A stretch of DNA of 64,000 nt from Oikopleura dioica. Lineage: Eukaryota > Animalia > Chordata. Shown here piece after piece: positions 34,117 through 54,735 of the stretch. Within the stretch, counting starts at the first letter, position 1. Each line of letters starts with the position of its first letter. Location: contig OU015568.1 of NCBI GenBank assembly GCA_907165135.1, positions 15,263,208 to 15,327,207 of the forward strand, in the 5' to 3' direction. Both the position numbers and the translations under genes were made by a program. Below the pieces are notes generated by a model. That model had not been told where the DNA came from. It saw nothing but the letters and a program-made list of their open reading frames with translations, and did not search any database.

Positions 34117-34336
34117 GAAGGTAAACACCAGGCACTAGGAAACGACTAACACTAATTCAAGGGCAAAATTCAATCATACATGAAGAAAGAAGCAGTGAAA
34201 AGAGAAAGTCATAAGTACTATTTTCTGACCAAACATAAATCCAATTTTCGACGTGAACTGTAACTAAAAACTAGAAAAATCGTTAACTTAGCATTGAATT
34301 CAACAAGGAAAATTTAGACTGAAAATCAATAAAACC

Positions 34337-35206: not shown

Positions 35207-37057
35207 ATGACAAAACTTATCAAATCAACCAAACAACAAGCTGACTTGTGCAAAGGAGGAACTATCCTCCTGGTCACCAGCACCGATCTCAGCGGGGCAC
35301 TCGCTGCGGCGGTAAAAACCGCAAAGATCGAAGGCAGCTTCCTACTGGCAACATACGAGGAGTCAATCTTTGCCCAGAAATTCGCTAACAGCGCATTACA
35401 ATGGGCAAAGATGAAACAAGCTGCAGAGGAGATATTGGGAGAAAGCCCAAACACTCTGATCTATTTGGACGACTCCCTGGCCCAGCGGCACGGAACCCAA
35501 ATCCCAAGTTCTTCAAAAACTGAACCTGTGCAACAAGTAAAAAGAGAGCCGGGAAAAGGCGAGAGTATCACAGAAGGAGGTCTGGAGGCGAAACCAGACG
35601 TACCGAACGAGCAAGAGACTGAACAAGTCAAAGAGCTCAGGCGACAGATTGAGCGGCTTCGCTTAGAAAATAGCTTGAAGACCGAGAATCTATCAAAAGC
35701 GCTAAGTAAGGTGGGGGCCATAGAAGAGGAACGGAAGGCAAACTGCGAAATGCTTAACCGATACGACGAGATACACAAAGAAATGATCGCAAAAATGGAT
35801 AACGCATCGGAAATCCTCGACAAGGCCAACCATCTTTTTGGTAATCGTAAGCGAGATCACGACAGTAACACCTCAGAAACAGACTCCGAGGAAGAAGATT
35901 GGGACGAACAAAGAGAGAAAGAAGCAGAGGAGCGAAATGCAAGGAAAAGAACGAGCGAACAACGTCAAAAGAAGAGAGGCCGAGAAGAGAATCCCAGTCC
36001 CTCTCGGAGGGAAAGCTCAACAGAGACAACAAGAAAAGAAAAACTGAGCGAGAAAAAGAAGCCAAAGAAGGATGGAGTGGTCCGATTCGTTGGAAACCCA
36101 CAGAAATTCCAATTGAAAAATTGGAAGACGGAAGAGAATATCACCTATTGGGAGCACCTTACAAGGAATAAAATTGCTCTCAACAACGCAAAGCAGAGCG
36201 GGTTAACAGACAGTCAGATGGTGTCACTCTTTATGTTAACCCTCCGCCCCGAAGACGCCTTCATTGAAGAATTGCTGGAAGAATCCTGGAAGAATAATTT
36301 TGAGCTATTTCTGGAAAAAATTGGGAAATTTCTGGCAGGAAGTCAGAGTAGCATGATGAACGATGTATTGACCGCCAAGCGACGGCCTCAGGAATCTCTT
36401 CTTGCATTCTTTATACGGCTTTGCACCATGTTTAAAACATCCTCGGGAAAAGACCCTAAGTCCCAAGAGGCAGCAATGGTGCTTCACCCAGTCATCAAAA
36501 ACAACGCCACTAAAATCCAAAAAACGGAACTAATCCGAGAACTGGAAGCCGGGAAGGCGGCTGACACACCAATAACGTTTGATAAGCTTCAAGCGGCGAT
36601 CAAACAAGCACAAATCATGGATGATTCAAACTTCCATGACGCTCCCGCAGAGCTTGTCTACAACATGGAAGGGGACAAAAGAACGAACACCCAAGAAAAC
36701 CAAGCATGGTCCAACAAGGGGAAAGGGATATCCGAAGCACCCAAGGTTAGCTGGAAGGAGAAAACAAGTGATGAATGGAACAGGGGACCCGCCACCCGGC
36801 CGAACGCAAATCGACCCCCATGGAACCGACAAGAGCGCTTCAGTCGGGGACGAGAACCTTATCCCCGAAGAACTGGACCACGTGAACCCTTATGTTTCAA
36901 CTGCAATGGGCGAGGCCATATGTGGCGCCAATGCAGCAAACCACTCAAAGACCGATTCGTGCGGGCACAAGCACAAGACAAAGCACGAGAGACGCGGGCG
37001 CGAGAGACAAAGACTCCGCCCGGGACAACAACTGCTAAGCCAAAAACCTCGGGCTAA
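35207..37057 (+). CDS. gag: Gag (616 aa): N-terminal extension, coiled coil, capsid, CCHC nucleocapsid
   Basis: Zinc knuckle CFNCNGRGHMWRQC; lies immediately upstream of pol. Confidence 0.92.
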   Translation: MTKLIKSTKQQADLCKGGTILLVTSTDLSGALAAAVKTAKIEGSFLLATYEESIFAQKFANSALQWAKMKQAAEEILGESPNTLIYLDDSLAQRHGTQIPSSSKTEPVQQVKREPGKGESITEGGLEAKPDVPNEQETEQVKELRRQIERLRLENSLKTENLSKALSKVGAIEEERKANCEMLNRYDEIHKEMIAKMDNASEILDKANHLFGNRKRDHDSNTSETDSEEEDWDEQREKEAEERNARKRTSEQRQKKRGREENPSPSRRESSTETTRKEKLSEKKKPKKDGVVRFVGNPQKFQLKNWKTEENITYWEHLTRNKIALNNAKQSGLTDSQMVSLFMLTLRPEDAFIEELLEESWKNNFELFLEKIGKFLAGSQSSMMNDVLTAKRRPQESLLAFFIRLCTMFKTSSGKDPKSQEAAMVLHPVIKNNATKIQKTELIRELEAGKAADTPITFDKLQAAIKQAQIMDDSNFHDAPAELVYNMEGDKRTNTQENQAWSNKGKGISEAPKVSWKEKTSDEWNRGPATRPNANRPPWNRQERFSRGREPYPRRTGPREPLCFNCNGRGHMWRQCSKPLKDRFVRAQAQDKARETRARETKTPPGTTTAKPKTSG

Positions 37058-37067
37058 GGCCCAGGTT

Positions 37068-40000: not shown

Positions 40001-40607
40001 CACCCCTTACCGACCACAAGGACAAGGACTCATTGAACGAGCAAATCGCGAGATTCTTAAACACCTAAAATCGCTCGACATCGACGAACACCGATGGGAC
40101 ACTTACATTCCATCTATACAGTTATCGATGAATTTAACTTACCACTCGGCACTCGGAACGAGTCCCTTCCAAGCAATGCACGGATGGCTGCTCGCCGAGC
40201 CACTTTTCTCAAGACAAATCAACGGAGAAGAGCTCCCTCGGAACGTCAGACTCTGGGTCAAAGAGTCAAGTTCCCGAATGTGCGCAGCCTTATCACTGTT
40301 AACAGCGAGACAAGCTGTGCCTCTCATGGAACTACCGGACGAAAATCAACCCGATGGACTTGAAAAGGGGACCCCCGTCCTTCTGAAAAAAATGAAGCCT
40401 CCAGGAGTGAGCTCCAAATTATTTAACGCCTGGAAGGATGGCTTCGTCGTGAGAAAACGACTTGATCATAATACTTATTTAGTTACTCCCGTCGAATCTC
40501 CTAGGCGGCGCTTCCTAGTCCATCGCTCCCGTATACGGCGATTGGGCAGGCCTCTTGAGGAAGCACCACCGGAAAAACACGTATATACGGTAATCAGTCG
40601 AGAATAA
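37068..40607 (+). CDS. pol: Pol polyprotein PR-RT-RNaseH-IN (Ty3/gypsy order); possibly extended to 40818 by a 43-bp intron
   Basis: LLDTGAS (protease), VDMRALN and YLDD (RT), TSDAS/EKEL/TDS/ADCLSR (RNase H), H-x-x-H-H...CPAC, D-D-E (IDLLGP, SCDFG, LIERAN) and GPY/F-like WKDGFVV. The ORF is uninterrupted. Confidence 0.97.
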   Translation: MNVRRGRPDHCTTLLVRTDVKLRSERRYPVVVKNILTLLDTGASLSCASLDFAKNLEAQGFPLNKEKPIRSNPMAAKGARMEIAFDLVLDIILRGDPDIRFPGTRISIIPGLRAELILGVDSLLNKTIQLQRRTVKINGQTFPLACPENTVLLRVIEAGKGQGMNFLRVDTGPRKVHKASKRLLLTLDPEFSPGVPGVAMIINSSELETELMITYPGPATPVPKIFLARIDEVQDDPNEDSPKKLTLQDIEKMTSKTELSEDGIERLKEILKQHSEAFSKEKTDVGLYQGPEVKLQLLDPRLPGAWVRPRRIPFSQVEWLKAELKKMEEAGIIERSTGSSFNAPLQLVKKASGGYRICVDMRALNNRLAESKWPLPSLAETLESLSGSAFFSCVDIRQAFFHMALEEESKPLTAFSALNSQYQFRRLPMGLKISPSVYQMAMKATLGDDLGNRVVAYLDDVLVCGKNEEEHLQTLDLVLARLKKAGFLLNPDKCILGAKKITFLGHEVTPSGYFPKTDNLAAIREFPVPTNKKALRRFIGMCSFYSTLVPNLQRKLAPLHEISGPKATFNWTSSQEDAFHLIKRLMVAQTGLAFPSNDPKAVLLVTSDASETGFGGMISQKIGDEEEQPLGYTSGFFRGPQVRWAINEKELYAFIKTLETFHHFVYGRSFRWRTDSKCLSFICAETNGKQTRRPSAKKLRWLEKLTEYDFSITHCEGTSLEMSVADCLSRIDPPNLVMHIDSEIQKKYRMLNRPIPTWIKLKGITKSELRLAQDNDGDLVNFRNGWKPLKAKYRLKERSDGILVYDHKDKPRIPIPQELQDRIILSFHLPHHGRTTNLVHAMRDADIIFPKMAKKIKTKVQTCPACLATGTTENPKHRQVTAPKEMHPNMTVTIDLLGPLPTSPTRKKYILAAVDNLTRWIELRCIVDKTAEHVAKALLDIFFLRGPPRAVSCDFGREFNNVLLTELLTSFGTAVNHGTPYRPQGQGLIERANREILKHLKSLDIDEHRWDTYIPSIQLSMNLTYHSALGTSPFQAMHGWLLAEPLFSRQINGEELPRNVRLWVKESSSRMCAALSLLTARQAVPLMELPDENQPDGLEKGTPVLLKKMKPPGVSSKLFNAWKDGFVVRKRLDHNTYLVTPVESPRRRFLVHRSRIRRLGRPLEEAPPEKHVYTVISRE

Positions 40608-41013
40608 ATATCCAATCATGATTGTTGCCTAGGAGGAGAATAAGTCAAGCAAAACAAGGAGCGTGCAACCAGTAGAAGAGCTTCCCAATAGCAGCAAAAC
40701 CGAGAACACGGCGACAAACCCGCTTGGAAACGAAAACGGAAAATATGACACGACTGAGCAAGCGAGGCCGCGGAGAACAAAGGGACGCGATAAAAACTTC
40801 TACAAGAAATTCTTCTGAGGGTACCGGCCAACAGGGAGACAAGAGCCTCCTCAAAAATAAGAAGGTACCACAATTCGAAGCAGACGAATCCTCAGAAGTC
40901 GACGGGAAAGAGATTTTTCTTGCGAAATCTGTCAGTTCTAAATTTTTTCACTGGAAATCTGCGATTAAACCCTTAGTCATAAGGTGATATAATCAGGAAT
41001 TATATTTAGACTG

Positions 41014-41385
41014 ATGACATCAACTAATAACGAAATAATGAAAATCTGCCCATCAATAACGATACCCAAATGCCCCGATCCACCAGAAATCGGAGTAAAA
41101 ATGAACTGCGTGAGCAAAGCGAACGCGGGACTCAACAGTACAACTAAGGAGAAATCCTCCACTAGCTTCGAGGTAGGAGGTAGCTCACTTATAGGAAATT
41201 TTATTTCATTCCTATTTTCTTTCGTCGCGGGACTTATAACCAGTCGCATCTTCAGCAGACTCCGCGGCCGGAAGAAACGAAGAGAAAACCTTTTTGCAAA
41301 GCGGAACTTCTGCTTAAACCCAAGCAACCAACGACAGGAAGACGTGCAGGTATCCCAAGAATGCCAGCAAATAGAATTCATCTAG
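41014..41385 (+). CDS. Small single-pass membrane protein (123 aa): Cys/Pro ectodomain, TM, polybasic RLRGRKKRR
   Basis: TM LIGNFISFLFSFVAGLITSRIF; acceptor atttag 4 nt upstream. Confidence 0.7.
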   Translation: MTSTNNEIMKICPSITIPKCPDPPEIGVKMNCVSKANAGLNSTTKEKSSTSFEVGGSSLIGNFISFLFSFVAGLITSRIFSRLRGRKKRRENLFAKRNFCLNPSNQRQEDVQVSQECQQIEFI

Positions 41386-41546
41386 ACATATGCCCAATAT
41401 GTCTCGACAATAAAATTGTGCCAAAAATTCTCTGTTGCACGCATAGCTACTGTCAGGGCTGTATCGATTACTGGTTCCTGACCCAAATGGAAAACTGCCC
41501 CTTGTGTAGACGTTCTATAACATGGGCGGAAATGATGGCGAAATAA
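41361..41546 (+). CDS. Minimal C3HC4 RING protein (61 aa)
   Basis: CPIC-x11-CTHSYCQGC...CPLC. Confidence 0.75.
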   Translation: MPANRIHLDICPICLDNKIVPKILCCTHSYCQGCIDYWFLTQMENCPLCRRSITWAEMMAK

Positions 41547-41649
41547 TGAACTCACTTTAGGAAGATCCCTTCTTGAGCAAACAAGGCTTAATGATCCAGA
41601 AATTGGATTTCTTCGTGCAAGCAGAAAAACAGTCACAGAAACCGACCGG

Positions 41650-42321
41650 ATGATTCGGGAAATCGTTAACCGAATAATCCAAAAATCACCACCATCGGAA
41701 GCGACTAAAAGGAAAATCTACGACGCTCTATGGAAAAAGCTCCAGACAGCAAAAGAGGCAAAGGAACAAACCATTGTCAAAAGGATTCGACAAATGACTG
41801 CAACAACCGCTGCGCACAAAAAAGGAAGGATCCTACATTTGGATATCCTTGAGTACCTTGAAGGAAGCGACCTAGTACCACACTGGCACAAAAACATCGA
41901 CAGATGGGCAACCGCGATGAGATACATCGACGAACTGGAAAATCATTATAAGAGCAGCACGCCATTATATCAGCGTGACCAACGAAATATCAAAAGTTTA
42001 CGCAAACAGACAAGCCGAGTCATCAGCGACCAAATACGGCGTGGCTTCCGACAGCCTCCTCAGATATCTTGGGAAAAGCTCTTTGAAAAAACTGAAAGCA
42101 CTACAAAGATCGAGAGGAAGCCACTTCTCGAAAGTATCGAACAAGCGACCGGCAAAATAGGAAAGAAGACAAGCGTAGTCTTGGAGATTGCTTTTCACTC
42201 TGTGCTACTGTACAATTTCATAAAAGCCTGCCTTCAAACAGTAGCAGTAGGATGGCAGGTTGTTTACGTGCCCATACGAGAAATCACAAGATATATTGTA
42301 TCACAACATCAGATGGACTGA
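41650..42321 (+). CDS. Element cargo, hypothetical 223 aa, hydrophobic C-terminus
   Basis: Long basic helical ORF in the sense cluster. Confidence 0.65.
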   Translation: MIREIVNRIIQKSPPSEATKRKIYDALWKKLQTAKEAKEQTIVKRIRQMTATTAAHKKGRILHLDILEYLEGSDLVPHWHKNIDRWATAMRYIDELENHYKSSTPLYQRDQRNIKSLRKQTSRVISDQIRRGFRQPPQISWEKLFEKTESTTKIERKPLLESIEQATGKIGKKTSVVLEIAFHSVLLYNFIKACLQTVAVGWQVVYVPIREITRYIVSQHQMD

Positions 42322-42362
42322 CAGACAAATCGTGAAAGATGATAAACAAATAGTTTAGACCA

Positions 42363-42509
42363 ATGACATCCATGGAAGAGATTCGGGAATACGTCTACGG
42401 GGCCTATGAGTACTCAAGGGATCTAAATACTATCGTGGTTATTATCTTATTTGCCCTGTACGCTATCGACTTTGGACTTAAATCTCTGTCCAAGGAAAAA
42501 CAAAACTGA
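42363..42509 (+). CDS. 48-aa micropeptide, copy 1
   Basis: MTSMEEIREYVYGAYEYSRDLNTIVVIILFALYAIDFGLKSLSKEKQN; acceptor gtttag 4 nt upstream; paralog at 42589. Confidence 0.7.
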   Translation: MTSMEEIREYVYGAYEYSRDLNTIVVIILFALYAIDFGLKSLSKEKQN

Positions 42510-42588
42510 AACCTCATCCAAACCAACCCCCAGGGGGAGGGGGGAAATCAACTACCCATCGACGCTCACGGAAACCTACTTCAGAAAA

Positions 42589-42735
42589 ATGACCTCGATG
42601 AGCCTTGCCAAGAGATACCTTGAACGGGCGTCGGAATACCTGAAGATGGCGAGAGAAACAACATTTCACATCCTTATCGTTCTGCATGCCATCAAATTCG
42701 GATTGAGACTGCTAACTAAACCCAAACAAAACTAA
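42589..42735 (+). CDS. 48-aa micropeptide, copy 2
   Basis: MTSMSLAKRYLERASEYLKMARETTFHILIVLHAIKFGLRLLTKPKQN; acceptor cttcag 4 nt upstream; same length and same MTSM/AIxFGL/KQN frame as copy 1. Confidence 0.7.
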   Translation: MTSMSLAKRYLERASEYLKMARETTFHILIVLHAIKFGLRLLTKPKQN

Positions 42736-42821
42736 CCCGTCTGGAAACTAGCCTAGCTAGTCACAGAAAAAAAAAATATTATATCGCACTCAGCCCATAG
42801 CCAATCGATTCCTTAAGACCT

Positions 42822-43187
42822 ATGGGCGGAAAAAATTCGGCGTGCAAAACCCCCTGTCCCGAACCGATCTGCCCCGTCAAACACACCATAAGATGGGATA
42901 TGGCTTGGGAAATGACGCGGAACAAAATCAAAGAAACAAGTGCATGGCCGTATCTTACATCTATTATGATAGGAACAATCATCACACTTGTAGTCAAAGT
43001 ATACACGAACCGACGAGAAGAAAAGTATCAGCCTTCCGAAACGGCATCGAGAATTATCCTCGACACCCAAAATATTGCTGATTGGACACAAACGGCAGCA
43101 ACGACAGGCTCTAAACACAATTCTGCTATAAGAAACGATAAAACTTGTACTGTTAGGAATAATCTCGAAAGAGTAACCCATCTCTAA
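42822..43187 (+). CDS. Small single-pass membrane protein (121 aa), N-myristoylation consensus MGGKNS, Cys/Pro ectodomain
   Basis: CKTPCPEPICP, TM WPYLTSIMIGTIITLVVKVY. Confidence 0.7.
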   Translation: MGGKNSACKTPCPEPICPVKHTIRWDMAWEMTRNKIKETSAWPYLTSIMIGTIITLVVKVYTNRREEKYQPSETASRIILDTQNIADWTQTAATTGSKHNSAIRNDKTCTVRNNLERVTHL

Positions 43188-43247
43188 GGTAGATCCGAAC
43201 CCAAGAAATAACCAGTTGTGCTTAAGACAAGCCACTATTTCAACAAA

Positions 43248-43757
43248 ATGTCGGCAAGATCTACACAAACAGTAAGCAACAATGCTTGCGACGAATTCGA
43301 AGAGATGATCGTTTGGACCATCATGGACAATGACACAAGCCATTTTGACGAAAAGGAACTCGTTGAGAAAATCGGATGGACTGGATTCCGGGAAGCCATA
43401 AAAGAAGCAACCGAGGACGCAAAAACTTACCAACAATGGTTAAAAACCACCGTTGCAACGTGGACCCGAGTTCCTCAGGAAATAAAAAGCACACTTAAGG
43501 ACTTTGCTCATGATAATTCTAGGCAAGGACTTTTCGACTGGACTTACGAGCTTATACTCTATGGATCCGCACTGCACTCCACGACTACTGACAGAGGGGT
43601 GTTAAACGAATGGCAAAACGCAGTATACGGAGATTTTGTTGAAAAATTCGGAAATCCTCCTTACATAGCATTTACCGAGCGCCAACGACTTCCGGAAAAA
43701 GAAGAGATAAATATTGCACGTAAAACGTGCTTGCTGCGCTTAACCTCAGAAATATGA
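43248..43757 (+). CDS. Element cargo, hypothetical 169 aa
   Basis: ATG after acceptor tgcttaag; Trp-rich globular-looking ORF. Confidence 0.65.
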   Translation: MSARSTQTVSNNACDEFEEMIVWTIMDNDTSHFDEKELVEKIGWTGFREAIKEATEDAKTYQQWLKTTVATWTRVPQEIKSTLKDFAHDNSRQGLFDWTYELILYGSALHSTTTDRGVLNEWQNAVYGDFVEKFGNPPYIAFTERQRLPEKEEINIARKTCLLRLTSEI

Positions 43758-43831
43758 ATCATAAAAACCCCAAGTAGAGTTAACCTCAAGTCTTTATTTG
43801 AGTAGATTGATAGCACTAACTTCCGTTTAGA

Positions 43832-44047
43832 ATGGCCCCAAATACTTGCAAACCAACGAATTGTCCCTCAACCGAATGTTCCGAAGCCGTAGAAAAACTT
43901 GATTTACCGGGGACCGTCTATCTAGCGGACACGATAAGCAAAATCCTATTTTCAATCATATACATTTTGCTTGGAATCGTCGGCTGGATGTGCGTGCATG
44001 CTCTCTTCAAGTACTTTAAAAATAGTCAAGAAAAAAAGACAGAATGA
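43832..44047 (+). CDS. Small single-pass membrane protein (71 aa), Cys/Pro N-terminus
   Basis: CKPTNCPSTEC, TM ILFSIIYILLGIVGWMCVHALF; upstream cactaac branch point + ttccgtttag. Confidence 0.7.
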   Translation: MAPNTCKPTNCPSTECSEAVEKLDLPGTVYLADTISKILFSIIYILLGIVGWMCVHALFKYFKNSQEKKTE

Positions 44048-44136
44048 GTTTATTAAATCCTGTTTACCCTTATGGAACTGCTCGGACAACGAAAAAAACC
44101 AATGAATGTGTAAGAAAATAAACGAACTTCCTTTAG

Positions 44137-44919
44137 ATGGAAGAAGGAAACACCACTCAGCAAGCAAGTCGGGAAAACGAAAAGCAAAACCGGCACTATC
44201 CGCGGCTACACATTGAGTATCCATGTGGCAACAGGAAGATATGTCCCGCAACGAGTGACGATCCGATGGAAAATCTGAGGAATGCGATTTTTGAAGCATG
44301 CCCCGCTAAGCCCGGAGAAGAGTTGCGAAATAAAATCAAGATTTTTCACAAAGGGTCCGAAGTCAAACGAAAGGAAGAATTAAAAGGTCTGAAACCTGGA
44401 GAAACAATCCACGCCACTTGGCCTGGGGAACTCGGCCCAAATACTACTCCCGCGCAACAAACTAGGCAGATCCCAAAAATCATCGATGCCGCCTCCATCC
44501 AAAGACAAAATTTCGAATCATCCCTTAGAAACACGTTGAGAAACCAGCCACCTCAAAAACGAAAACTCGAGGAAGAAAGCGAGGTTCAAGCAGAGCAAGC
44601 AACACATCGACAGATCGGCTGTCTGCTAACAAAACTTGGAAGCGATCTTATCCAGTGGTCAAGCCCCTTACATGACCTAAGTAACCTGTTACAAGCAGAT
44701 GAAATCTTACGACACGACCCCGAAAAAGCAGACAAAACAAACAAAGCCATTCTTAACAATTACACGAACATGACGTACCTGAGTCAGCTCCTAGTAAACC
44801 TTCAACGAATCCTGTCCCCGACGACACTCAAGTCACCAGAGACCTTATCCGAAGCACCGTATCTGAACACAATGCACCCAGCCTTTGAACTGTCTCCTAG
44901 CTTCAACAATTTCCTTTAA
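44137..44919 (+). CDS. Ubiquitin-like-domain protein, BAG6/Scythe-like (260 aa)
   Basis: UBL pattern LHIEY..G.RK...DDPMENLRNAI...IKIFHKG...L..GETIH, followed by a helical block (IGCLLTKLG...PLHDLSNLLQ) resembling the BAG6 conserved region. Confidence 0.5.
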   Translation: MEEGNTTQQASRENEKQNRHYPRLHIEYPCGNRKICPATSDDPMENLRNAIFEACPAKPGEELRNKIKIFHKGSEVKRKEELKGLKPGETIHATWPGELGPNTTPAQQTRQIPKIIDAASIQRQNFESSLRNTLRNQPPQKRKLEEESEVQAEQATHRQIGCLLTKLGSDLIQWSSPLHDLSNLLQADEILRHDPEKADKTNKAILNNYTNMTYLSQLLVNLQRILSPTTLKSPETLSEAPYLNTMHPAFELSPSFNNFL

Positions 44920-44953
44920 TAAAAGACGTGAATAGGTAACAGGCTCCCTTCAG

Positions 44954-45487
44954 ATGCGGTACAGATGCGCTTATTGCAACACTCAATGGGCGTCCATAAA
45001 TTTCGAAGACGGCTGTAGAAATTGCAATAGCGATTTCATCGAAATAATCAATGATCGAGCCAGCACACGAGATTCAAATACAAACTGGACCACCCTGGGA
45101 CAAATCAAGTGGACTCTGACGATAGAGAAAAGGCACTGGGAGAAGCTTAAGTCCTTAAACACCGACCTGGTAAAGAGCAAACAGAAAAAATAGAGCGGCT
45201 TAATGAATCACGTATTTAAGATGATGCGATTCCGCATTCCGACGCCCTCCTCGCCCAAAGAGAAGCTAAGAACCGAAAAGGAAGGCGGTAAGGACTTTCC
45301 CGTGGACAAGCAACGCCAAAAGGAAGTGGACATCTGCGCAATATGCCAGGAAGGACTCTTCAACAACCTTGCTTGCCTACGTTGTAATCATGTTTTTCAT
45401 CAAGGTTGTATTCGCAAGTGGTTAAACCAACCACGCTGCTCGCGCTGTCCGTACTGCAACCAAACAGTCCCACTGCGTTTCTTCTAA
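44954..45487 (+). CDS. RNF126/RNF115-like E3 ligase A: Zn ribbon + RING-H2 (intron 45170-45220; 160 aa)
   Basis: YRCAYC...CRNCNSDFIEII (cf. CPRCESGFIEEL); CAIC...CNHVFHQGC..W...CPYC. A 51-bp GT-AG intron joins them in frame. Confidence 0.75.
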
Positions 45488-45546
45488 CCACGAATTATAA
45501 GAAGCTAAAGAGCAAATTGAGTAATTGTTCCTTCTTTTAAGAACAA

Positions 45547-46104
45547 ATGGAACAGGCAAAAATTGACAATATTATCATTGGAACAGCGGAAGACGCGATC
45601 AAGCTTTCCTCCTTCCAAGAAATTATCGTACGAGAAATCCTGGGGAAACCGAAGTTGATTGGTTTCAATGCTGAAGAAGAATGGCAGCGTCCCCTGAGAG
45701 ACGCCGTTCATTTGGTAAACCAGAAAGCCGAACTATGGCTAAGATCCCAAACTTGGCAGGAACAAGCAACAATAGCGAAACTGCCGAGACAACGACTAGC
45801 GACAACAACTTTGTCTTCCACCAAGGACCTCGCACTGCTGATCGCATTCCGAACTATGCAAAGAAAGTTGAAAAGCCCTTGGCAAAAAGAAGGTTTTGAT
45901 CGCGCGATCATCAAAGAAATTGGGAGCATCAATGTTCAAGAACCAGCGGTCGCCAAGGAATTCGCTCGCGACGTAAACACGGGAATAGAATCGATTCCGG
46001 CAATCATCGAAGAGGCGTACACAAAAATAAAAAATGAAGAATCACTGGAAGATACCCGAAAAAAACCTGTTAAACCTGCATGTCTGACACTTTCCCAGCG
46101 ATAA
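45547..46104 (+). CDS. Element cargo family X, copy 2 (185 aa, intronless)
   Basis: IKLSSFQEIIVREILGKP / EEWQRPLRDAV / STKDLALLIAFRTMQR align with copy 1 (34337). Confidence 0.8.
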   Translation: MEQAKIDNIIIGTAEDAIKLSSFQEIIVREILGKPKLIGFNAEEEWQRPLRDAVHLVNQKAELWLRSQTWQEQATIAKLPRQRLATTTLSSTKDLALLIAFRTMQRKLKSPWQKEGFDRAIIKEIGSINVQEPAVAKEFARDVNTGIESIPAIIEEAYTKIKNEESLEDTRKKPVKPACLTLSQR

Positions 46105-46202
46105 GAGAAAAGCTGGATAATACTTCCCCGAACTCATTTCCTTCCGTCTTAAACAAGTCAACGTCTTTTAGAAAGCATTTGCTGACAAAAAGTAATTTAA
46201 GA

Positions 46203-46694
46203 ATGAAGCAAACCGGAGGAAATTACATCCTCTCCCTTGTCATGAATCAACCAACTGCAATGCCCAAAGAGGAGCTCGCCGCGAAGGGACTTGACCGTGG
46301 TAGAGCATTCGGGGAAGGATGCGGAGGAACTCAAGACAAATTCCTCGGTAGCAAAATTGGGATCGACGCTATGATAGAGGCAGTGAAGCAAACCCTCGAA
46401 GAATTGTCCGAGGGTCGAGACCTGCCTGCAGAACAAGGAGGACTTCTAATGGGAACCGCGATAGGCTTTATGAAAAGCCACGGTCACTCACCTCTTCACG
46501 AGGAAGGCTATCGAAAAATAGTGCAAGTCGTGTTTCCTCGATTGGCAAACGTACAAACACCGGCTTACTGGAGCCCTAAAACAATATTCGCACACCTGTA
46601 CTTCAATCTCATGATGAGACGACAGAAACTACCCAGACAGGGCGTAGGCGCGGAGCCACCGAAGGTAAGCTTGCAAGATGTGTCCCGAAATTAA
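46203..46694 (+). CDS. Element cargo, hypothetical 163 aa
   Basis: ATG after acceptor aatttaag. Confidence 0.6.
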   Translation: MKQTGGNYILSLVMNQPTAMPKEELAAKGLDRGRAFGEGCGGTQDKFLGSKIGIDAMIEAVKQTLEELSEGRDLPAEQGGLLMGTAIGFMKSHGHSPLHEEGYRKIVQVVFPRLANVQTPAYWSPKTIFAHLYFNLMMRRQKLPRQGVGAEPPKVSLQDVSRN

Positions 46695-46715
46695 ACAATC
46701 TAGAAAATCGCCCGA

Positions 46716-46901
46716 ATGGATCCGTCTGTAGCAATTCCGGGACCAACAACTCAGACAACACAAATTTTCCCCGGGCAACACACCACTCAAATCCAGCCGA
46801 CAACAAGGGAACAACCAATCCAGATGCCAACGGAGAATCTCATCGGAGACGGAAACGTAGACAAATTCTTCGAAACAGTCTTCCCACCTGCCTTTCAATA
46901 A
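46716..46901 (+). CDS. Small Pro/Thr/Gln-rich ORF (61 aa)
   Basis: Sense ORF filling the gap between cargo genes. Confidence 0.4.
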   Translation: MDPSVAIPGPTTQTTQIFPGQHTTQIQPTTREQPIQMPTENLIGDGNVDKFFETVFPPAFQ

Positions 46902-47038
46902 CCCTGAACCATATGTATTTCCGGGCTAACCATCCCCCTCCTACAACCATACCCAACAACCACATCTGAAAACACCAATCGATTATAAGGAATTATCACT
47001 GAAAACCGGAATTAATAAGATTTCTTTCAAGATTGAAA

Positions 47039-47700
47039 ATGAGCTCCCCAAGAGATTCGAACCTAGCTCCAAAAACCGAGCCGGAAATAAAGGTAAATAA
47101 ACAAAATGATAAGAGCTAATCTTCCCTAAGGAGGAATCCGTTCATCTCGAGCTACTCAAATCCTACAAGCACCTCCTTCCGAACCAAATCTACAATTATG
47201 CCAAACTTGTCGTTAAACGAGTAATGACAACTGACCCAAAGCTTTCCCCAAAAGGCATCGTGACCAGCGCAGTTTATTTGGCGTACAAATTTTCGCCAGA
47301 GCCAAAAACAACAACAGCCATCGGAGAAATGCTGAAATGCCCAAATTGGATGATTTACAAAACCGCACCGTTAGTACGGACACGATTCAACAAGGAGACC
47401 AAAAACGAGCTAGAGATTGCAAGAAAATACATCGATCAACAAGCTCATCTCGCTGATTCGGATTGGATCACTCGGGCAAGACAAATAGCCGACCATGCCT
47501 GGCACCCCAACATCAAAGCGAGCCCGAAAAGAATTGCTGCATCATCCGCGTACTTAGCATACAAATTTTCGCCAACACCAATGTCGGCGAGGAAAGTAGC
47601 ACAGCAATGGAACTTCTCCACAGCGCAAATTCTGGCAACAGCCCAAACCATTCAGAAGCATCTCAAAATAGTCTGTTTTATTACCGCCCGGCGGGAGTAG
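47039..47700 (+). CDS. TFIIB-core-like (two cyclin-fold repeats, no Zn ribbon); intron 47093-47130; 207 aa
   Basis: Repeats GIVTSAVYLAYKF and RIAASSAYLAYKF. A 38-bp intron (GTAAAT...gctaat...ccctaag) supplies an in-frame ATG exon. Confidence 0.7.
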
Positions 47701-47749
47701 ACTGCTTGAACAATCAGAGTTACCGATCTTAACCTGAACCCGATTTCAG

Positions 47750-48524
47750 ATGGCTAGCTTTCGCTGCTTAGGTTGTAACCTGAATTGCGAGGAGATTCGA
47801 AAACCCTGGAATTGCCCGAATTGCAACAGTAAGTTCATCGATCTAATAGGAAAATGGAAAAAAGAAGACGTGGTAGACAAGACCGGTTACAACAATGGAG
47901 AGATTCTCTTCAAAATCGTTGCAAACCACGAGAGGGCAATCAGCCAAATCAAACACTTGATGGAACTTAGTAACTGTCGAACCTCTGCACATGTAAGTGC
48001 CCTAGATGGTTGGGAAAAAGTAAAAAATTAATCAGGGTGAAACAAATGAAAACGCCCAAACACCGGGGCCTACTCCATCAACGGAACCACCGAAAGACCC
48101 AACAGGCAGAAAGACGTCCGGGCTTTTAGAAGAAAAGAACAGTTTCAAAAAGGCACCGACTTCTGTTAACCTTGAAGGACGGAATCAATTGAAAATGAGA
48201 CCACAGCCAAGGGTAGGAGAAATAGAAGGTATTCGGGGACAGTGCCAAGGAAGATACCTCATACCAAATGGGAAGCGTAGACATAAACAAAAAACAATTG
48301 AAGAAATTGGGACTCGCGAATATGAAAGACGCGAGGACACACTTCGACATTCCACCATGCATGAGACTCTTGAATACCCTTGCGGCATCTGCATGGAAGA
48401 ATTCGCGGCCAAGTGCTGTTCATTCCTCCCCTCGTGCGGGCACACTTTCCACACTCACTGCATCCTAAAATGGCTTCTCCACAAAAATACCTGTCCAATT
48501 TGCCAGGAAATCATAGCAAAATAA
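47750..48524 (+). CDS. RNF126/RNF115-like E3 ligase B: Zn ribbon + RING-H2 (intron 47993-48035; 243 aa)
   Basis: FRCLGC...CPNCNSKFIDLI; CGIC...CGHTFHTHC..W...CPIC. A 43-bp GTAAGT...CAG intron joins them in frame. Confidence 0.8.
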
Positions 48525-48576
48525 AATAATAATAAGAAAAAGATAACTCTGACACTCTTAACTTACCCTGTTAAGT

Positions 48577-49421
48577 ATGGACGAGAACCAAGAGGAAGCA
48601 GCACAAACTGAAAACGAAGAATCACCGCATAATTCAAGGCAGAAGGAACAAACACTGCCATGTTTCTTGGAAGAAATAATGACACCACCGAAGAAAATAG
48701 GGCGCCTAGAAGTAATCAACCCAGATGGAACAAGAACTTTGCAACAATTCGTTGAAGGAGGAGCCACGTGCGAGGAACTGCAAGCACTCTTAGACTCACT
48801 TTCACGCATTGAATTGACAGAATGGGAAAAAGAGGTAGGCGACCCCTGCCGCATTTGCCTGGAAGAATTTGACAAAACAGCAAACCTTATACCCACCTGT
48901 GGACACTTCTTTCACCAACATTGTCTACGAAACTGGCTCATATGGAAGGATTCTTGCCCACTATGCATCTTACCGGTAAACGAGAACAGATTGAACATGA
49001 CCCGAAAATACTTTAGGTTAAGCCGAAAGGAACCATCCCAATAACAATTAAGGATTGGCTGGAAAAGAAACATAAAGTTAAGTACGAATCGTTGCTCGAT
49101 GCGGTAAATATACTTGAAAAGAAGGAAGAATATGACAACATCAACTCACATTTCCGCCTCGAACCGGACGGATCGCTCATTGAAATAAAAATCATCTTCA
49201 GGAAAGTCGAAGGCGAAGAATTGGAGGAAAGGCTCATGCTGACAAAGAAAATCAAGATAAGCGCAGTAGAAAAGTACGAAAGTGATTGCGGGCTCTGCCA
49301 GGAAGACCTGCCTGAAGACATATCGGTCATGACATGCTGTTACGCCTACTACCATAATGCGTGCCTGCGAAAATGGCTAGCAAACAGACCTTACTGCAAG
49401 TACTGCAACACCCCCCTATAA
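48577..49421 (+). CDS. Tandem double-RING protein (intron 48976-49016; 267 aa)
   Basis: RING-H2 CRIC...CGHFFHQHC..W...CPLC and a second RING CGLC...CCYAYYHNAC..W...CKYC. A 41-bp GT-AG intron joins the ORFs in frame. Confidence 0.75.
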
Positions 49422-49481
49422 GATTGAAGTTGCAACAGATTCAGAAACCACCTAAATTAAAATATACCAAAGGATAGCACT

Positions 49482-50351
49482 ATGATGTTTAGAATGCTCT
49501 CCACAAACACATTTCAGCTCTACGTATGGCTTCCTACCGAAAACATTTTTTTCGAGAACCATGTCTCGAGGAACCAACAAGGATTCCGGGACGCACGGAA
49601 AGCAGGGCTCTCCGACGAACAATTGACAAGTCTCTTTCTCATAACACTGACACCAGAACAAAGGAGTTACGAGACTCTCCTCGACGAAATTGAGAAAACA
49701 AATTTTGATCTATGCGTAGATCGGATGAGGAAGATTCTTACCACGAACCTGGTATACGATCGAGACTTGCCATACCTCGACGCCAAGGAAAAATTCCGGC
49801 TCTATGTATGGGGACCAAACGAAAAAATCAGCTTCGCACAACATGTGGCAAGAAACAGACAAGGGTTCAACAGCGCAAGAAAATGTGGGCTTCTAGATGT
49901 TGATCTCACTCGTCTTTTGTTTATGACTCTCAGACCAGAGTTTGCACACCTCGAGAAAGGCCTAAATAGGAATGAAAAAACCAAACTCGAGCTTTGCATC
50001 GAGAGAATGAAGAAATGTATTTCAGCGAAACATCAAAACCATAATAAGGGGAATGAAGTAAACGGAAAACGCAAAGAAGGCGAAGCCCTGATCATTTTCT
50101 TCGGACGACTCTGCGCAGATCTGCAAAAGTCACCTGGCGAAGAACCACTATCAGACGCCGCGGCCCTCAGAATAATTTACCCTATTCTCCTACAGAACTG
50201 TGGCCCTGCCGAGTTCCATACCCTTGTCAAATATAAGAGCAGCGACGGAACCCAAGATTTAACCTTCAGAGCGCTTGCAGCTAAACTAGGGAACCTGCAC
50301 GTACCCTACGGTGGCATACAAACAAGACCAAGACGCGCTATTAATCGCTAG
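49482..50351 (+). CDS. Capsid paralog 2 with tandem-duplicated CA N-terminal module (289 aa)
   Basis: FQLYVW..ENI.F..HV.RN.QGF..ARK.GL.D..LT.L...TL.PE occurs twice and matches Gag FQLKNWKTEENITYWEHLTRN...GLTDSQMVSLFMLTLRPE; then RKEGEALIIFFGRL. Confidence 0.85.
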   Translation: MMFRMLSTNTFQLYVWLPTENIFFENHVSRNQQGFRDARKAGLSDEQLTSLFLITLTPEQRSYETLLDEIEKTNFDLCVDRMRKILTTNLVYDRDLPYLDAKEKFRLYVWGPNEKISFAQHVARNRQGFNSARKCGLLDVDLTRLLFMTLRPEFAHLEKGLNRNEKTKLELCIERMKKCISAKHQNHNKGNEVNGKRKEGEALIIFFGRLCADLQKSPGEEPLSDAAALRIIYPILLQNCGPAEFHTLVKYKSSDGTQDLTFRALAAKLGNLHVPYGGIQTRPRRAINR

Positions 50352-50444
50352 AATCCCTTAGCTTTAATTATAATTAAGCCCGCATTAACCGCAAGTAAAT
50401 CGGAACTGAGAGTCCAATACCGAACATTCAGATTGAAAAAGACT

Positions 50445-50657
50445 ATGCATCTCGCTCCGCAATTCTGGCATAAATGGCTCTCGTGCCTTTGCCTAGCAAC
50501 ACCAGCTGACCCGACGATTGAGGGAAGGGAGCAGGTGACCCGGAGAGTTCCTCTCCGCGACAAGATCAAACGAAAACTAGGGATAAGTAAAACCCAGAAT
50601 CGGGAGGCCCCCGAAGAAGAAATCTTGATCCCATCTGCACCTACCCGAACTCCATAA
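50445..50657 (+). CDS. Small cargo ORF (70 aa) with PSAP motif near C-terminus
   Basis: ATG after acceptor acattcag; ends LIPSAPTRTP. Confidence 0.45.
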   Translation: MHLAPQFWHKWLSCLCLATPADPTIEGREQVTRRVPLRDKIKRKLGISKTQNREAPEEEILIPSAPTRTP

Positions 50658-50703
50658 ACTCTCGAACTAAAGCCCCTCCAATCTTAAACTGTTCAGAGTC
50701 AGA

Positions 50704-51675
50704 ATGGATAAACATAAAATTATCGGAGAAAAGGCAAGTGGGCTGCTTTCTGGGCTCAATGATTTGCTCCCACACCTCGGTCCCCTCGGTAAAGTCTGGT
50801 ACGCAACTTTGCTGGTAAGAAGTATTGTCCTATTAACAGTTGGTACGGAAATTTATTCAAACGATTCAGGCGGATTCAGATGTAGCACCAAACAGCAACT
50901 GTGTAGCTCAGTTTGCTATAACCAATTTTTACCAGTCAACCTGACTAGATTTTGGACTTGGCACCTCGTCATTATTGGGATCGTCACTCTGGGGCTCGGA
51001 CATCTTATCCTGAAACCCGCAGAAGACGTACAGCTTATGCGATTACTCGAACACGACATAAACCCAAAACCGACAGAATTAATCGTCTGGCCAAATCGCC
51101 AGGACCGGCCAAGCTGGACATTTCAACTGAAGAGGCTTAATGAACTCCGCTCAAAATATGGGCATATGCAAGGCTTCAAAGAAAAATACAAAGGTAATCG
51201 CCTGGTCATCACGACACCATCAACGAACTGGAAACGAATCTTGTTCCTAACCAGTCTGTGCGTCATTGACCTTATTTTTCTAATTATGAATTTTGTGCTC
51301 CTCAAACACCAATACAACCACGAAACACCTTGGACGACCCTCCTTAAGGCAGGACAACTGTTGAAGACCCCAGCTTCATTTATCTGCAAAATTGATAAAT
51401 ACGCGATACTATCAGAAAAAGAGACGAGGAATTTCGCGGAAACTGGATATGATCCTGCTGACCCGCGTTACTTCTTCTGGAAAGCACAGCACGCATGTGC
51501 CCAATCCGAGTCCGTCTGTACTGTCGACAAATTCACGGAAAAAACGTTTATCTCCTGTACCATGATCGGTGCAACCCTAGCGGGCACTCTATTGCTAGCA
51601 ACAGGCGGACTGTTTTACCTGATTAAAATAATTCATAGAATTCTGTCAAGACAATGGAAAATCAGGCGGACGTAA
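50704..51675 (+). CDS. Connexin (gap-junction/hemichannel protein), intronless, 323 aa
   Basis: GKVW TM1; EL1 FRCST.Q..CSSVCYN...P....RFW; EL2 C...C...C with FTEKT; four TM segments; very short C-tail. Confidence 0.92.
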   Translation: MDKHKIIGEKASGLLSGLNDLLPHLGPLGKVWYATLLVRSIVLLTVGTEIYSNDSGGFRCSTKQQLCSSVCYNQFLPVNLTRFWTWHLVIIGIVTLGLGHLILKPAEDVQLMRLLEHDINPKPTELIVWPNRQDRPSWTFQLKRLNELRSKYGHMQGFKEKYKGNRLVITTPSTNWKRILFLTSLCVIDLIFLIMNFVLLKHQYNHETPWTTLLKAGQLLKTPASFICKIDKYAILSEKETRNFAETGYDPADPRYFFWKAQHACAQSESVCTVDKFTEKTFISCTMIGATLAGTLLLATGGLFYLIKIIHRILSRQWKIRRT

Positions 51676-51712
51676 AATTCGACTACCAAATTGTAACGAA
51701 ACACGCTTTAGA

Positions 51713-52622
51713 ATGTCTGCTCCAGGCTGCTCTCTTCCCGCCTTTACCTGCTCATATCATGGCCCAAAGCACATAGCCGACGAAAGGCTTGTGACAGGAG
51801 ACCTTATCTGCAAAATATGCGGACTTGTCGTAGGAGAAAGATGCCCACCACTCAACCCAGAAAAATCAATGCGAGTGACGGCCATCAAACCAAACGAAAA
51901 CTTGCCAAAAACTTTCACCCGGAATAACGAAGAAACAGGGGACGAATGCATCATATCAAACGAGGCCCAACTATCCAACCGCGAGAAAAATAGGTTACAA
52001 ACTGTCCTTCGGGAATGTGAAGACCTCATCGAAGAAGCAGGAGCCCGATTGATATACTCAGGACTCACTAATACAAAACTACGAGCTTACGAACTCATCA
52101 AAAAGCTATACCTCAAAGAAAAACAGGGAACAACTTGGTACTTCCACCGCCAAAATCGCGCAGAACCCGTGGCAATAGCGGCGTGCCTCTACCTGGCCAG
52201 TAAGCAAGAGAACTGCGACCTGAGCTTGGAAGAAATCTGCCAGGCAACTGGCACCTCTCCCCCTAATCACCCAGAGAATGATTCGCAAATTCGATACCTT
52301 CCTCAGAACAGCAAAAATCGACGCACACATTAAAAACAGAATCAAACCTTACATCCAAAGAATAGCAGCTGCGCTTCGATTAACTAATCACCAAGCGAAA
52401 GAAATCGAAGCGCATGCCATCCTGATAAGCAAAGAAACCCCATCAGCCACAACCTCAGCAAAAACGCTCGCCGCCGCCAGCACCTACGTATATATCGACC
52501 GAATAAACCGACCAAAGTCAGTCAAGGAAATAGCAAGACTTGTGAACGCGGGAACCCGGCGGCTTCAAATCTACATCGCAGAACTCCCTCGAACACTCGG
52601 AGGAAGAAGAGAAAGGGAATAG
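51713..52622 (+). CDS. TFIIB homolog (Zn ribbon + core), split by a 1-nt frameshift in a C-run near 52258
   Basis: CSYH...GDLICKICGLVVGER Zn ribbon; AIAACLYLAS...SLEEI and TLAAASTYV...KSVKEIA cyclin repeats. Deleting one C joins the two ORFs. Confidence 0.88.
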
Positions 52623-52858
52623 AAGGAAAAGGTGATTACTATATAAACGCGATGGCGCTACAAAACCAACACTAACCAATTACGTAGTTAATCCCGCTCG
52701 ATCCTGACAAACAACAACTTAAACACCCAGAATATAGTAGCTGCCACCCATTTATGTCTGTACCCATTATTTCGAACTTCAAACAAAATCTTTATGCCTT
52801 ATGAATAGCGCTCACTCCTTTAAAATAGGCCACTTTCATCCAACATCCGATTTTTAGT

Positions 52859-53479
52859 ATGTCAATCCTTAAAGAAATCCAAACGATCCAAGCCGCGTCA
52901 AACCGACGAATTGTAAAAACGCTGCTCCTCCCAAGAATGGTCGGAATCGAAATACCCATTGGAACCATGACCCTTCGTGATGAGCAGCCCGTCCAAGCCA
53001 TGTACGATTTTATCGATAAAGTCACCGCTTCCGCCATCACCTACCGGTCCATCCCGAACTTAAACTCTGACGCTTTCCTGGACGCCTTTCTGAATCAAAT
53101 CCCAAGACAAGAAACCGAGCAATGCGTTCTACTTTGGATCGCAAAAACCATCATCGTCGCCCATATGACCTTCCATGAAACCAGAGACCGACTGATCGCA
53201 TACCTCACGGATGCTTTCCAAACCAAGTATGGTCGACGTCAGATCCCATTTCGACCAATAGCATTGCCAAGAAACGAACTCCAAGACAAACTCCAAGCGA
53301 TCGAAATCCGCGTTAAAGCGGTCGCTTCTACTATCATCCTCGCCAAACGCGTGGTCAAACCCGGCTTGCCAAAAATGGAGCCAACTCCGGCTAGAAAAGG
53401 GACCAGACAACGAATGCGAAAAATCCAACGTAACAGACGAAAGTGGTCGGCATCGAGCACCAAATCCAATGAGGCTTAA
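52859..53479 (+). CDS. Last cargo gene (206 aa): candidate Rev/Rex-like RNA export adaptor (NES + Arg-rich motif)
   Basis: ELQDKLQAIEI fits the CRM1 NES spacing phi-x3-phi-x2-phi-x-phi; RKGTRQRMRKIQRNRRKW resembles the lentiviral Rev ARM. The function is inferred. Confidence 0.55.
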   Translation: MSILKEIQTIQAASNRRIVKTLLLPRMVGIEIPIGTMTLRDEQPVQAMYDFIDKVTASAITYRSIPNLNSDAFLDAFLNQIPRQETEQCVLLWIAKTIIVAHMTFHETRDRLIAYLTDAFQTKYGRRQIPFRPIALPRNELQDKLQAIEIRVKAVASTIILAKRVVKPGLPKMEPTPARKGTRQRMRKIQRNRRKWSASSTKSNEA

Positions 53480-53532
53480 CCAGTTAAAAATTTACTGTAC
53501 TTCTTTTCCTGTCTCTCTCTTCCAGATTCCCT

Positions 53533-53545
53533 AAGGAGGGTAAAG
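53533..53545 (+). other. Polypurine tract
   Basis: AAGGAGGGTAAAG directly abutting the 3' LTR. Confidence 0.8.
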
Positions 53546-53852
53546 TGTTATGATATAACTTATGTTTATGCAGCTGAGTGCCCAGGTTAGCCTGAGCATC
53601 TCGTTCCATCCTGACGATATGCCTCGTGCATAATTGATCAACCAATAAGAACCTGGATGGCTCGGGATGCAGCGTAGGATAGCCTGGGGGCTCAGCGATC
53701 AGTATATAAGGAAGACACCTTCCTTCAGATCAGTAACGTTCTCATTTCATACCATGTGCAAGACATGAAATAAAACACAAAATACGTTATACCAAAATAT
53801 GCGTTAGTTTTTATTGCAAGATTGATACACCATTGCAAGGCAGCGCATAACA
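53546..53852 (+). repeat. 3' LTR (307 bp)
   Basis: Direct repeat of 16491-16797; followed by TSD CCGT. Confidence 0.97.
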
Positions 53853-53856
53853 CCGT

Positions 53857-54735
53857 GCGTTGCGAACTGCCGGCCACCAACAGGACATTCTGCTCGAGCT
53901 TGGTATTGAACTTGGCAGTCGACCAACGCTAGCACAGCGCGCGGGCCTCATAAAATCAAAACCGAAAAAATGGACAGAGAGCGATTGGAAATCCCTCGAA
54001 ACATCCCTCTTGCAGAAACGCGCCTTTAGAGACATTTGTTCTATCTGCCTCAACCGACATGGGAAGCATCCGATTGCTATGACCACCTGTGCGCATGTTT
54101 TTCACCAAAGTTGCTTGAAAGCGACGAGGCAATCGAAAACTTTTCACAAATGTCCGCTTTGTCGGTAATGCCAAATTATACTTTCCAATAATTTATGCAA
54201 CTTTAGTGAAGAATATAAAGAAAAAGTCACGAAACGCGGTCTCCGAGCGAGCCAGAACTACGCGGCAGCTCAAATCCAAGCTTGTGTTCGATCGTTTATG
54301 ACGAGGCGACGTCTGGTCAAGAATTTTTCCTCCCGTCCGAACGTCAAAGCTCTCAAGTCCGAGTACGAGTCGTTTATTCTACGGAATTGGTCGAAAGAGG
54401 CCATTTCTTCTACTTCGACGATGATTTCCGAAACGGACAAGCTACTTGAAGCGTCTGAAGATGCACTCGCCGCCTCGAGGAGGATCTTTTCGCAGATCAA
54501 GCTAGCGCCAGAAAAGGAGAGCGAAGAATTCCAAGCGGCGGCAGAACGCTGTGTTCAAGATCGCTCCTGCTCAGTTTGTCTTTGTCCGTTCAAGGGAAAA
54601 ACAGTTGCACTTCTTTCTTGCTCGCACGTGATTCACGACACTTGTAGAATTCAGCTCGAGTCTTTTTCGGGCAAAACGTTGTGTCCAGTTTGCAGACAAT
54701 CGTATTCTTTCAAAGCTTCTGATCTTATGTCCTGA
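53857..54735 (+). CDS. RNF32: RING-IQ-RING protein RNF32, disrupted: first codons ATG AAC CGT lie at 16482-16490
   Basis: PTLAQRAGLI...W, RING, IQ motif AAAQIQACVRSFMTRRRL, second RING. The empty-site join gives MNRALRTAGH in frame. Confidence 0.85.

Follow-up and report, generated by a model that had tools for sequence, protein, structure and literature searches.

We have found two genes for proteins resembling the general transcription factor TFIIB inside a giant long terminal repeat (LTR) retroelement of the chordate Oikopleura dioica. The stretch of DNA that was analysed, referred to below as the window, comprises 64,000 nucleotides of contig OU015568.1 (GenBank assembly GCA_907165135.1, positions 15,263,208 to 15,327,207 of the forward strand), and the element spans positions 16491-53852 of this window, or 37,362 bp with an internal region of 36.7 kb. 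Both genes, here called A (47039-47700) and B (51713-52622), lie 3' of pol and before the 3' LTR, in the orientation of gag and pol. B retains a zinc ribbon followed by two cyclin repeats, and A resembles the two-repeat core. Our best explanation, which we advance tentatively and with rather less than half of our confidence behind it, is that A and B serve as the element's own RNA polymerase II (Pol II) initiation factors.

The features of B are as follows.

51713-52622, plus strand: TFIIB-like gene B, split over two frames in the window and composed of a ribbon, a reader and linker that have diverged, and two cyclin repeats
51743-51844, plus strand: zinc ribbon of B, residues 11-44, with ligands C13, H16, C33 and C36
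52259-52263, plus strand: C-run joining the two frames of B, five C in the window and of differing length in contigs of sequencing runs

For all comparisons B was read through with an X at the frame break, giving 302 amino acids. Alignment against a profile of five TFIIBs using hhalign returned a probability of 98.7% (E = 1.8e-16) over 242 columns. The Pfam model PF00382 scored 28.9 bits on B (cut-off 23.6), and a local hidden Markov model (HMM) of 113 metazoan TFIIBs scored 51.5 bits, with 34.5 bits for the domain at residues 147-280. In a search of PDB sequences, the 182 residues before the break found human TFIIB as their best match (E = 6.2e-7), with yeast TFIIB at E values of 0.36-0.49 and Brf1 at 0.64; the part after the break was without a match in the same search. 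Residues C13, H16, C33 and C36 align on the invariant zinc ligands of TFIIB, and the G.V.G.R that follows them also falls on invariant ribbon columns.

Conservation along B is uneven. Columns were counted as conserved if at least 90% conserved in the 113 metazoan TFIIBs, and regions were bordered by human TFIIB numbering. On this basis B keeps 14 of the 18 conserved columns in the ribbon, 3 of 16 in the B-reader (where E is retained and W52/R53 are replaced), 2 of 7 in the B-linker, 14 of 51 in cyclin repeat 1 and 12 of 49 in cyclin repeat 2. A stretch of reader- and linker-like length is present, without similarity to TFIIB detectable by the 113-sequence HMM. No other part of B is kept nearly as well as the ribbon, a pattern that fits selection on Pol II docking.

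In the window, B is read in one frame from an ATG at 51713 to 52258 and in a second from 52263 to a stop at 52620-52622, the two frames overlapping around the C-run. Four DNA runs (X1, X3, X4 and X5), which came from three studies, were compared as Logan contigs with positions 46500-54500 of the window. A one-letter length difference at 52259 was found at full contig depth, which is not a copy number, in X1 (301.1 of 301.1), X3 (124.7 of 124.7) and X4 (94.6 of 94.6). The copies of B in these three runs are unbroken at the C-run. The original prediction was to be abandoned if the frameshift proved common to all copies, and X1, X3 and X4 show that it is not. Either the break is a variant of particular copies or animals, or the consensus is in error.

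The smaller gene, A, was delimited with a predicted intron.

47039-47092, plus strand: predicted exon 1 of A, 18 codons, beginning with ATG and followed by GT at 47093
47093-47130, plus strand: predicted 38-nt GT..AG intron of A (AG at 47129-47130), the removal of which joins two frames
47131-47700, plus strand: exon 2 of A, an open frame with two cyclin-like repeats

Indirect support for the predicted intron comes from similarity to the first TFIIB core helix, which is found before the next ATG, at 47224. No zinc ribbon was found in A, in which all 18 ribbon columns are gaps and predicted exon 1 has no Cys/His pattern, and the reader and linker of TFIIB are absent as well. The two halves of A resemble each other (30% identity over 70 residues by BLASTP, E = 2e-10). 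The 113-sequence TFIIB HMM scored 20.2 bits on A, with an E value of 1.5e-8 for one comparison; none of 2000 shuffles of A reached this score, the best of them giving 7.7 bits. Both halves aligned best to TFIIB repeat 2 with this HMM, and MAFFT placed A in register with both core repeats, apart from a deletion where repeat 2 begins. Pfam returned PF00382 alone. A feature search of the ESM Atlas, which serves as a lead only, gave TFIIB-bearing clusters as 23 of 30 matches (top score 0.93). The best match of A among PDB sequences was an unrelated monooxygenase (E = 0.017).

Structure prediction for A using AlphaFold was unusable from the single sequence (pLDDT 50.3) and reached a pLDDT of 87.1 with a 72-row TFIIB alignment. 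In a Foldseek search with the latter model, the 24 best-ranked chains came from entries for TFIIB, TFB or pre-initiation complexes (best E = 1.4e-5), and cyclins followed from rank 25 (E = 3e-4). Both of the variants seen in A between run contigs and window (2 of 2) are synonymous. Judged on its sequence, A is a putative TFIIB-core derivative with good but not overwhelming support.

Much of this had been anticipated in the original prediction, which placed two TFIIB homologues inside one LTR element, the larger keeping the ribbon and both repeats with a replaced reader and the smaller, at 47039, reduced to the core. The 242-column hhalign alignment of B and its ribbon and reader counts (14 of 18 columns versus 3 of 16) bear out the description of the larger gene. 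For the smaller, the TFIIB HMM upholds the homology, and the two repeats placed by HMM and MAFFT, together with the all-gap ribbon columns, agree with a core-only protein.

Relatives of both genes proved scarce. A word-index search of 5.8 billion proteins returned B itself and one distant TFIIB only for B, and no match for A. HMMER searches with the first part of B against 1.84 billion representatives gave five matches at E values of 1e-3 or below, namely B itself and four ordinary-looking TFIIBs with an EW reader, the best of which was 28% identical. A TFIIB profile search returned 662 TFIIBs; the best 120 of these 662 all carried TFIIB Pfam domains, and those of the 120 that were named by source came from animals. 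Scans of metagenome and viral contigs found no relatives of the TFIIB-like genes. Direct comparison of A with B by BLASTP gave an E value of 0.04. With a ribbon of metazoan type, C-x2-H, B appears likely to be of host origin. A and B probably derive from a metazoan-type TFIIB that was captured long ago, and by analogy with the gag and RING genes of the element they may have been duplicated inside it.

The element itself was delimited by the following features.

16487-16490, plus strand: target-site duplication CCGT, 5' copy, adjoining the outer end of the 5' LTR
16491-16797, plus strand: 5' LTR, 307 bp, with TG..CA ends
16799-16810, plus strand: primer-binding-like site beginning TGG, read directly from the sequence
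35207-37057, plus strand: gag with a CCHC knuckle
36576-40607, plus strand: pol frame with reverse transcriptase (RT), RNase H and integrase, by Pfam
53533-53545, plus strand: polypurine tract of 13 bases, preceding the 3' LTR
53546-53852, plus strand: 3' LTR, 307 bp
53853-53856, plus strand: target-site duplication CCGT, 3' copy, at the outer end of the 3' LTR

The 5' and 3' LTRs are 100% identical. Each contains TATATAA (at 16648-16654 in the 5' copy and at 53703 in the 3' copy), with AATAAA lying 66 nt 3' of this TATA motif (16714-16719 in the 5' LTR). Within the pol frame, Pfam identified RVT_1 at 512-672 (E = 1.5e-29), RNase H at 735-872 (RT_RNaseH_2, E = 2.4e-20) and integrase at 979-1147 (rve, E = 2.1e-11), and this order of RT, RNase H and integrase is of the Ty3/gypsy type. 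The direct LTRs with TG..CA ends, the target duplication, the primer-binding-like site and the polypurine tract are likewise those of a Ty3/gypsy LTR element. No env was recognised in the element, and Rfam and tRNA scans of the window gave no matches. All open reading frames (ORFs) between 30 and 53.5 kb run in the direction of gag and pol. In the 12.9 kb that separate pol from the 3' LTR, 15 plus-strand ORFs have at least 130 codons versus 0.46 in 500 shuffles, and 8 have at least 190 codons versus 0.012. With paired LTRs, a target duplication, gag and pol in place, the 37-kb retroelement that had been proposed from the sequence is confirmed.

Its insertion was also seen as an empty site. In X1 and in X4 a contig passes straight from the 5' flank into the 3' flank, and reads the 5' flank of the window (...AAAATAATGGAATGA) in place of the sequence before 53852. 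Because these contigs join the flanks exactly at the site, the insertion is polymorphic, and either all 37 kb are there or none. In X1 a single 24,066-letter contig of even depth covers the element from about 29.5 kb up to and into the 3' LTR. At LTR borders in X1, X3, X4 and X5, other loose ends adjoin unlike sequence, which points to further insertions or relatives. With identical LTRs, a target duplication and an empty site in X1 and X4, the element is apparently young and moved as one unit.

To the right of the insertion, host DNA at 53973-54430 occurs in two X1 contig versions, at depths of 78.5 and 80.3, one of which has 21 differing letters and 3 gaps over 298 bases. Heterozygosity at the insertion site is very high.

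In addition to the TFIIB-like genes, the element carries other cargo and a long leader.

31659-31985, plus strand: homologue of CKS (CDK regulatory subunit), upstream of gag (Pfam PF01111, E = 2.1e-26, 92.3 bits)
50671-51675, plus strand: connexin-like ORF, directly 5' of B (Pfam PF00029, E = 2.9e-18, profile positions 9-170 of 225)
41184-41546, 45194-45487, 48024-48524, 48562-49044 and 49017-49421, plus strand: five RING-finger ORFs
30761-31516 and 49482-50348, plus strand: extra copies of the gag C-terminal domain
41536-42321, plus strand: ORF with a weak DEK C-terminal match (E = 0.0017, below cut-off)
29666-29908, plus strand: degenerate Rab/Ras-like piece (Pfam PF00071, E = 1.3e-5, profile positions 13-55)
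16798-29950, plus strand: low-GC leader with few ORFs (GC 0.37; 13 kb)

One extra gag-domain copy is 47% identical to gag (E = 7e-52) and in the other ORF the domain occurs twice in tandem (E = 3e-24 and 9e-17), which shows that gene duplication took place within the element. The translation of the Rab/Ras-like piece is without a recognisable P-loop, and the piece looks like decayed cargo. Only 1 of 69 leader ORFs of at least 55 amino acids has a Pfam match. The leader also contains repeats, namely seven dispersed copies of 61 nt whose ends are conserved and, at 25020-25226, a tandem array with a 41-nt unit.

Small ORFs with a C-x2-C ... C-x2-C pattern (44936-45193 and 47738-48031) precede two of the RING ORFs and may be upstream exons of these. 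Two more RING ORFs are found in host DNA just beyond the 3' LTR, at 53851-54735. The run contigs also differ from the window by one letter in length at 47071, 47858, 48022, 48147, 49411 and 49546, in homopolymers of 5-7 letters and mostly in X5, the difference at 49411 also in X3 and X4. These differences may shift some of the ORF borders given for the window, for example those of 47738-48031 and 48024-48524.

A role of A and B as initiation factors for the element is suggested because the element needs Pol II and its LTR offers a TATA-box promoter. In the mechanism that we envisage, B would dock Pol II through its ribbon and, through its core, bind TBP at the LTR's TATA box or at that of an internal promoter, so that B would replace or supplement host TFIIB in transcription of the element. 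Loss of the B-reader would loosen start-site choice, by analogy with the Tetrahymena protein Emit3 discussed below. A, which has no ribbon, would modulate this process, either as an occupant of TBP-DNA or as the partner of another factor. The original prediction had offered altered start-site choice, elongation past internal AATAAA signals and dominant-negative action as candidate functions. For B we consider an active initiation role more plausible than a dominant-negative one. A wider proposal can be made, in which a retrovirus-like mobile element of a chordate carries a toolkit like that of DNA viruses (a TFIIB pair, CKS, connexin and RINGs) and B replaces host TFIIB at TATA promoters, making transcription of the element partly independent of the host; we hold this to be somewhat doubtful as a whole.

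Several observations weigh against A and B being working initiation factors. The window copy of B is broken, X5 has mostly this broken form (the unbroken contig has a depth of 12.7 of a summed 84.2), and the public protein P0009 (206 amino acids), from another assembly contig of 17.09 Mb, has the same shifted tail as the window. All length differences between window and runs in the element sit in homopolymers of 5-7 letters, and because of this, and because the sequencing platforms are unrecorded, the broken and unbroken forms of B can be assigned to individual animals only tentatively. The Pfam ribbon model PF08271 scored B under its cut-off (16 versus 29 bits). PF00382 scored 18.4 bits on A, under the cut-off of 23.6, hhalign of A against the five TFIIBs was weak (E = 0.0056, probability 6.5%), and the PDB sequence search of A gave no significant TFIIB match. 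The TM-score of the A model to TFIIB is only about 0.4, and the model has little independent weight because it was built on a TFIIB alignment, which is partly circular, and because the TM-scores are low. Protein libraries, metagenome and viral contigs yielded no other copy or relative for a selection test. In a tree with 27 TFIIBs the end branch of B is about 10 changes per column long, so that its origin cannot be placed there. The presence of a decayed Rab/Ras-like piece in the element means that not all cargo need be functional. Finally, four RNA runs (three oligo-dT and one single-cell, under the same species label) were compared with positions 34001-54000 and had no reads on 34001-53530, which is uninformative, as the sampled animals may lack the element.

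A and B may be suspected of being functionless passengers, that is, host sequence that was picked up and is decaying, which we judge to be doubtful. The broken B of the window and of a second contig would agree with decay, as would the extreme divergence of both genes, the decayed Rab/Ras-like fragment, the non-synonymous variants held by neighbouring ORFs and the missing RNA reads, uninformative as these are. However, strong divergence with frames that are nonetheless open over 302 codons (B, read through) and at least 189 codons (A) argues for constraint, and all four zinc ligands and most ribbon columns of B were kept while its reader was lost. B is moreover unbroken at full depth in three runs, and the variants of A are synonymous, although there are only two.

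It is unlikely, in our estimation, that A and B instead modulate or inhibit host transcription by unproductively occupying TBP-promoter complexes or the Pol II dock. Such activity could dampen host or silencing-related transcription, as in the dominant-negative idea put forward in the original prediction. B with its ribbon kept and 3 of 16 reader columns left would suit this role, A has the classic competitor shape of a core without a ribbon, and several RINGs, CKS and the connexin-like gene are other cargo likely to manipulate the host. Against it stand the dependence of the element itself on Pol II, the TATA box in its LTR, and the finding that a reader-poor TFIIB-like protein works as an initiation factor in Tetrahymena.

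We consider it improbable that A, and perhaps the core of B, is a cyclin-like adaptor for a CDK or the Mediator kinase, possibly acting with the CKS of the element; in such a role it would be like the cyclin-fold accessory protein of walleye dermal sarcoma virus. A does consist only of two cyclin-fold repeats, cyclins come closely behind TFIIB in the fold search (rank 25, E = 3e-4), and a strongly conserved CKS gene is present in the same element. The sequence similarity of A is nevertheless to TFIIB and not to cyclins, as judged from PF00382 as the sole Pfam match, the 20.2 bits of the TFIIB HMM and the TFIIB sets of the Atlas; a cyclin HMM was not among the local models.

That the TFIIB genes are host DNA caught between two separate LTR elements or solo LTRs is highly improbable: the 13 kb after the 5' LTR are low in GC, nearly ORF-free and unlike the rest in composition, but an identical 4-bp duplication lies outside both identical LTRs, flank-joining contigs in two runs show the 37 kb present or absent together, the ORFs at 30-53.5 kb are all on the gag-pol strand, and the even-depth X1 contig, starting at about 29.5 kb, extends into the 3' LTR.

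No RNA run was indexed as containing this stretch. Reads from the three oligo-dT RNA runs match only a 30-nt piece at 53531-53560, which covers the purine tract and the LTR start. These reads come from another element, because the sequence on both sides of the piece is unlike the window. Another, expressed element has the same junction of purine tract and LTR.

Signals that might relate to splicing were also noted. A donor-like AG|GTATGA is found at 16830-16837, just after the primer-binding-like site. A pyrimidine run and AG within about 16 nt of the ATG precede 6 of 24 ORF starts versus 24 of all 339 ATGs (p = 0.006, which is a lead only, as the motif was picked after looking); examples are the starts at 44137, 44954, 47750, 51713 and 52859. 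The donor-like site and the pyrimidine-AG motif are a hint of subgenomic mRNAs produced by splicing or trans-splicing.

To the left of the element, ordinary cellular genes are densely packed. They include a p53-like gene, glucosidase II beta, cytosolic carboxypeptidase, cyclophilin, TatD and Sin1, all six of which are within 15 kb. Taken with the connexin-family cargo gene, this gene density would fit a very compact chordate genome such as that of a larvacean tunicate. Base composition does not tell element cargo from host genes.

Retroelements are generally regarded as wholly reliant on the basal transcription machinery of the host. An own general initiation factor has hitherto been a mark of large DNA viruses. 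Mobile elements or viruses with a host-derived transcription factor, and complex retroelements with accessory genes, are already known. If our preferred reading of A and B as initiation factors is true, an element of 37 kb that is copied through RNA can gather and keep host-derived regulators, and LTR elements would be larger and richer in genes than has been known. The two genes would also constitute a natural experiment on a reader-less TFIIB and a ribbon-less core. As the element is polymorphic and apparently young and its host is an apparently small, culturable plankton animal, these questions are directly testable.

Compared with cellular TFIIB (metazoan GTF2B), B has the same C-x2-H ... 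C-x2-C ribbon, with GLVVG.R after it, and its two cyclin repeats come in equal order and spacing, and A matches the two-repeat core. Unlike the nearly invariant metazoan TFIIBs, which have end branches of about 0.15, B has an end branch of about 10 and identities of 21-28%. The B-reader is not kept in B, A is without ribbon, reader and linker, and both are encoded in a mobile element. Large DNA viruses carry TFIIB-like genes, and many of them have their own polymerase; PF00382 clusters from Nucleocytoviricota are present among the ESM Atlas matches. The common feature is a mobile genetic entity with its own general initiation factor, but the retroelement copies through RNA and depends on host Pol II. 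Walleye dermal sarcoma virus has a retroviral cyclin, a cyclin-fold accessory gene said to act on Pol II transcription. This gene differs from A and B in being cyclin-derived and in belonging to an exogenous fish retrovirus of about 13 kb.

A parallel in domain make-up is offered by Emit3 of Tetrahymena. As described in the available part of its report (PMC12082453), Emit3 is a host protein, TFIIB-like and stage-specific, that has a ribbon and B-core and from which the B-reader is largely missing. It brings Pol II to DNA derived from transposons, its ribbon is essential, and its authors tie the missing reader to loose start-site choice (PMC12082453). B is similarly composed of a ribbon and core and is reader-poor, a likeness of domain make-up. 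Unlike A and B, which are carried by an element, Emit3 is a host gene for making silencing RNAs in that account (PMC12082453).

In the literature searched on TFIIB with retrotransposons, endogenous retroviruses, Oikopleura and giant retroelements, supplements aside, no TFIIB gene in an LTR element was found, and the term 'TFIIB' does not occur in the giant-transposon review PMC6431247. The earlier statement that no LTR-element example is known agrees with this literature. The review describes Burro of planarians and Ogre of plants as giant LTR elements, Burro having RING and apoptosis-related domains and an internal region of up to 25 kb, with which it ranks among the largest LTR elements (PMC6431247). 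The Tor elements of Oikopleura, in the available description (PMC4402516), express env from an internal promoter and have polymorphic insertions, and only gag, pol and env are given for them. Burro and Tor are like the present element in being LTR elements of the Ty3/gypsy type with extra coding capacity, the likeness of Tor being by description. Its internal region of 36.7 kb compares with the up to 25 kb stated for Burro, and 13 kb of it are a nearly ORF-free leader. Unlike Burro and Tor as described in these sources, it carries many separate small cargo ORFs, including TFIIB, CKS and connexin-like genes.

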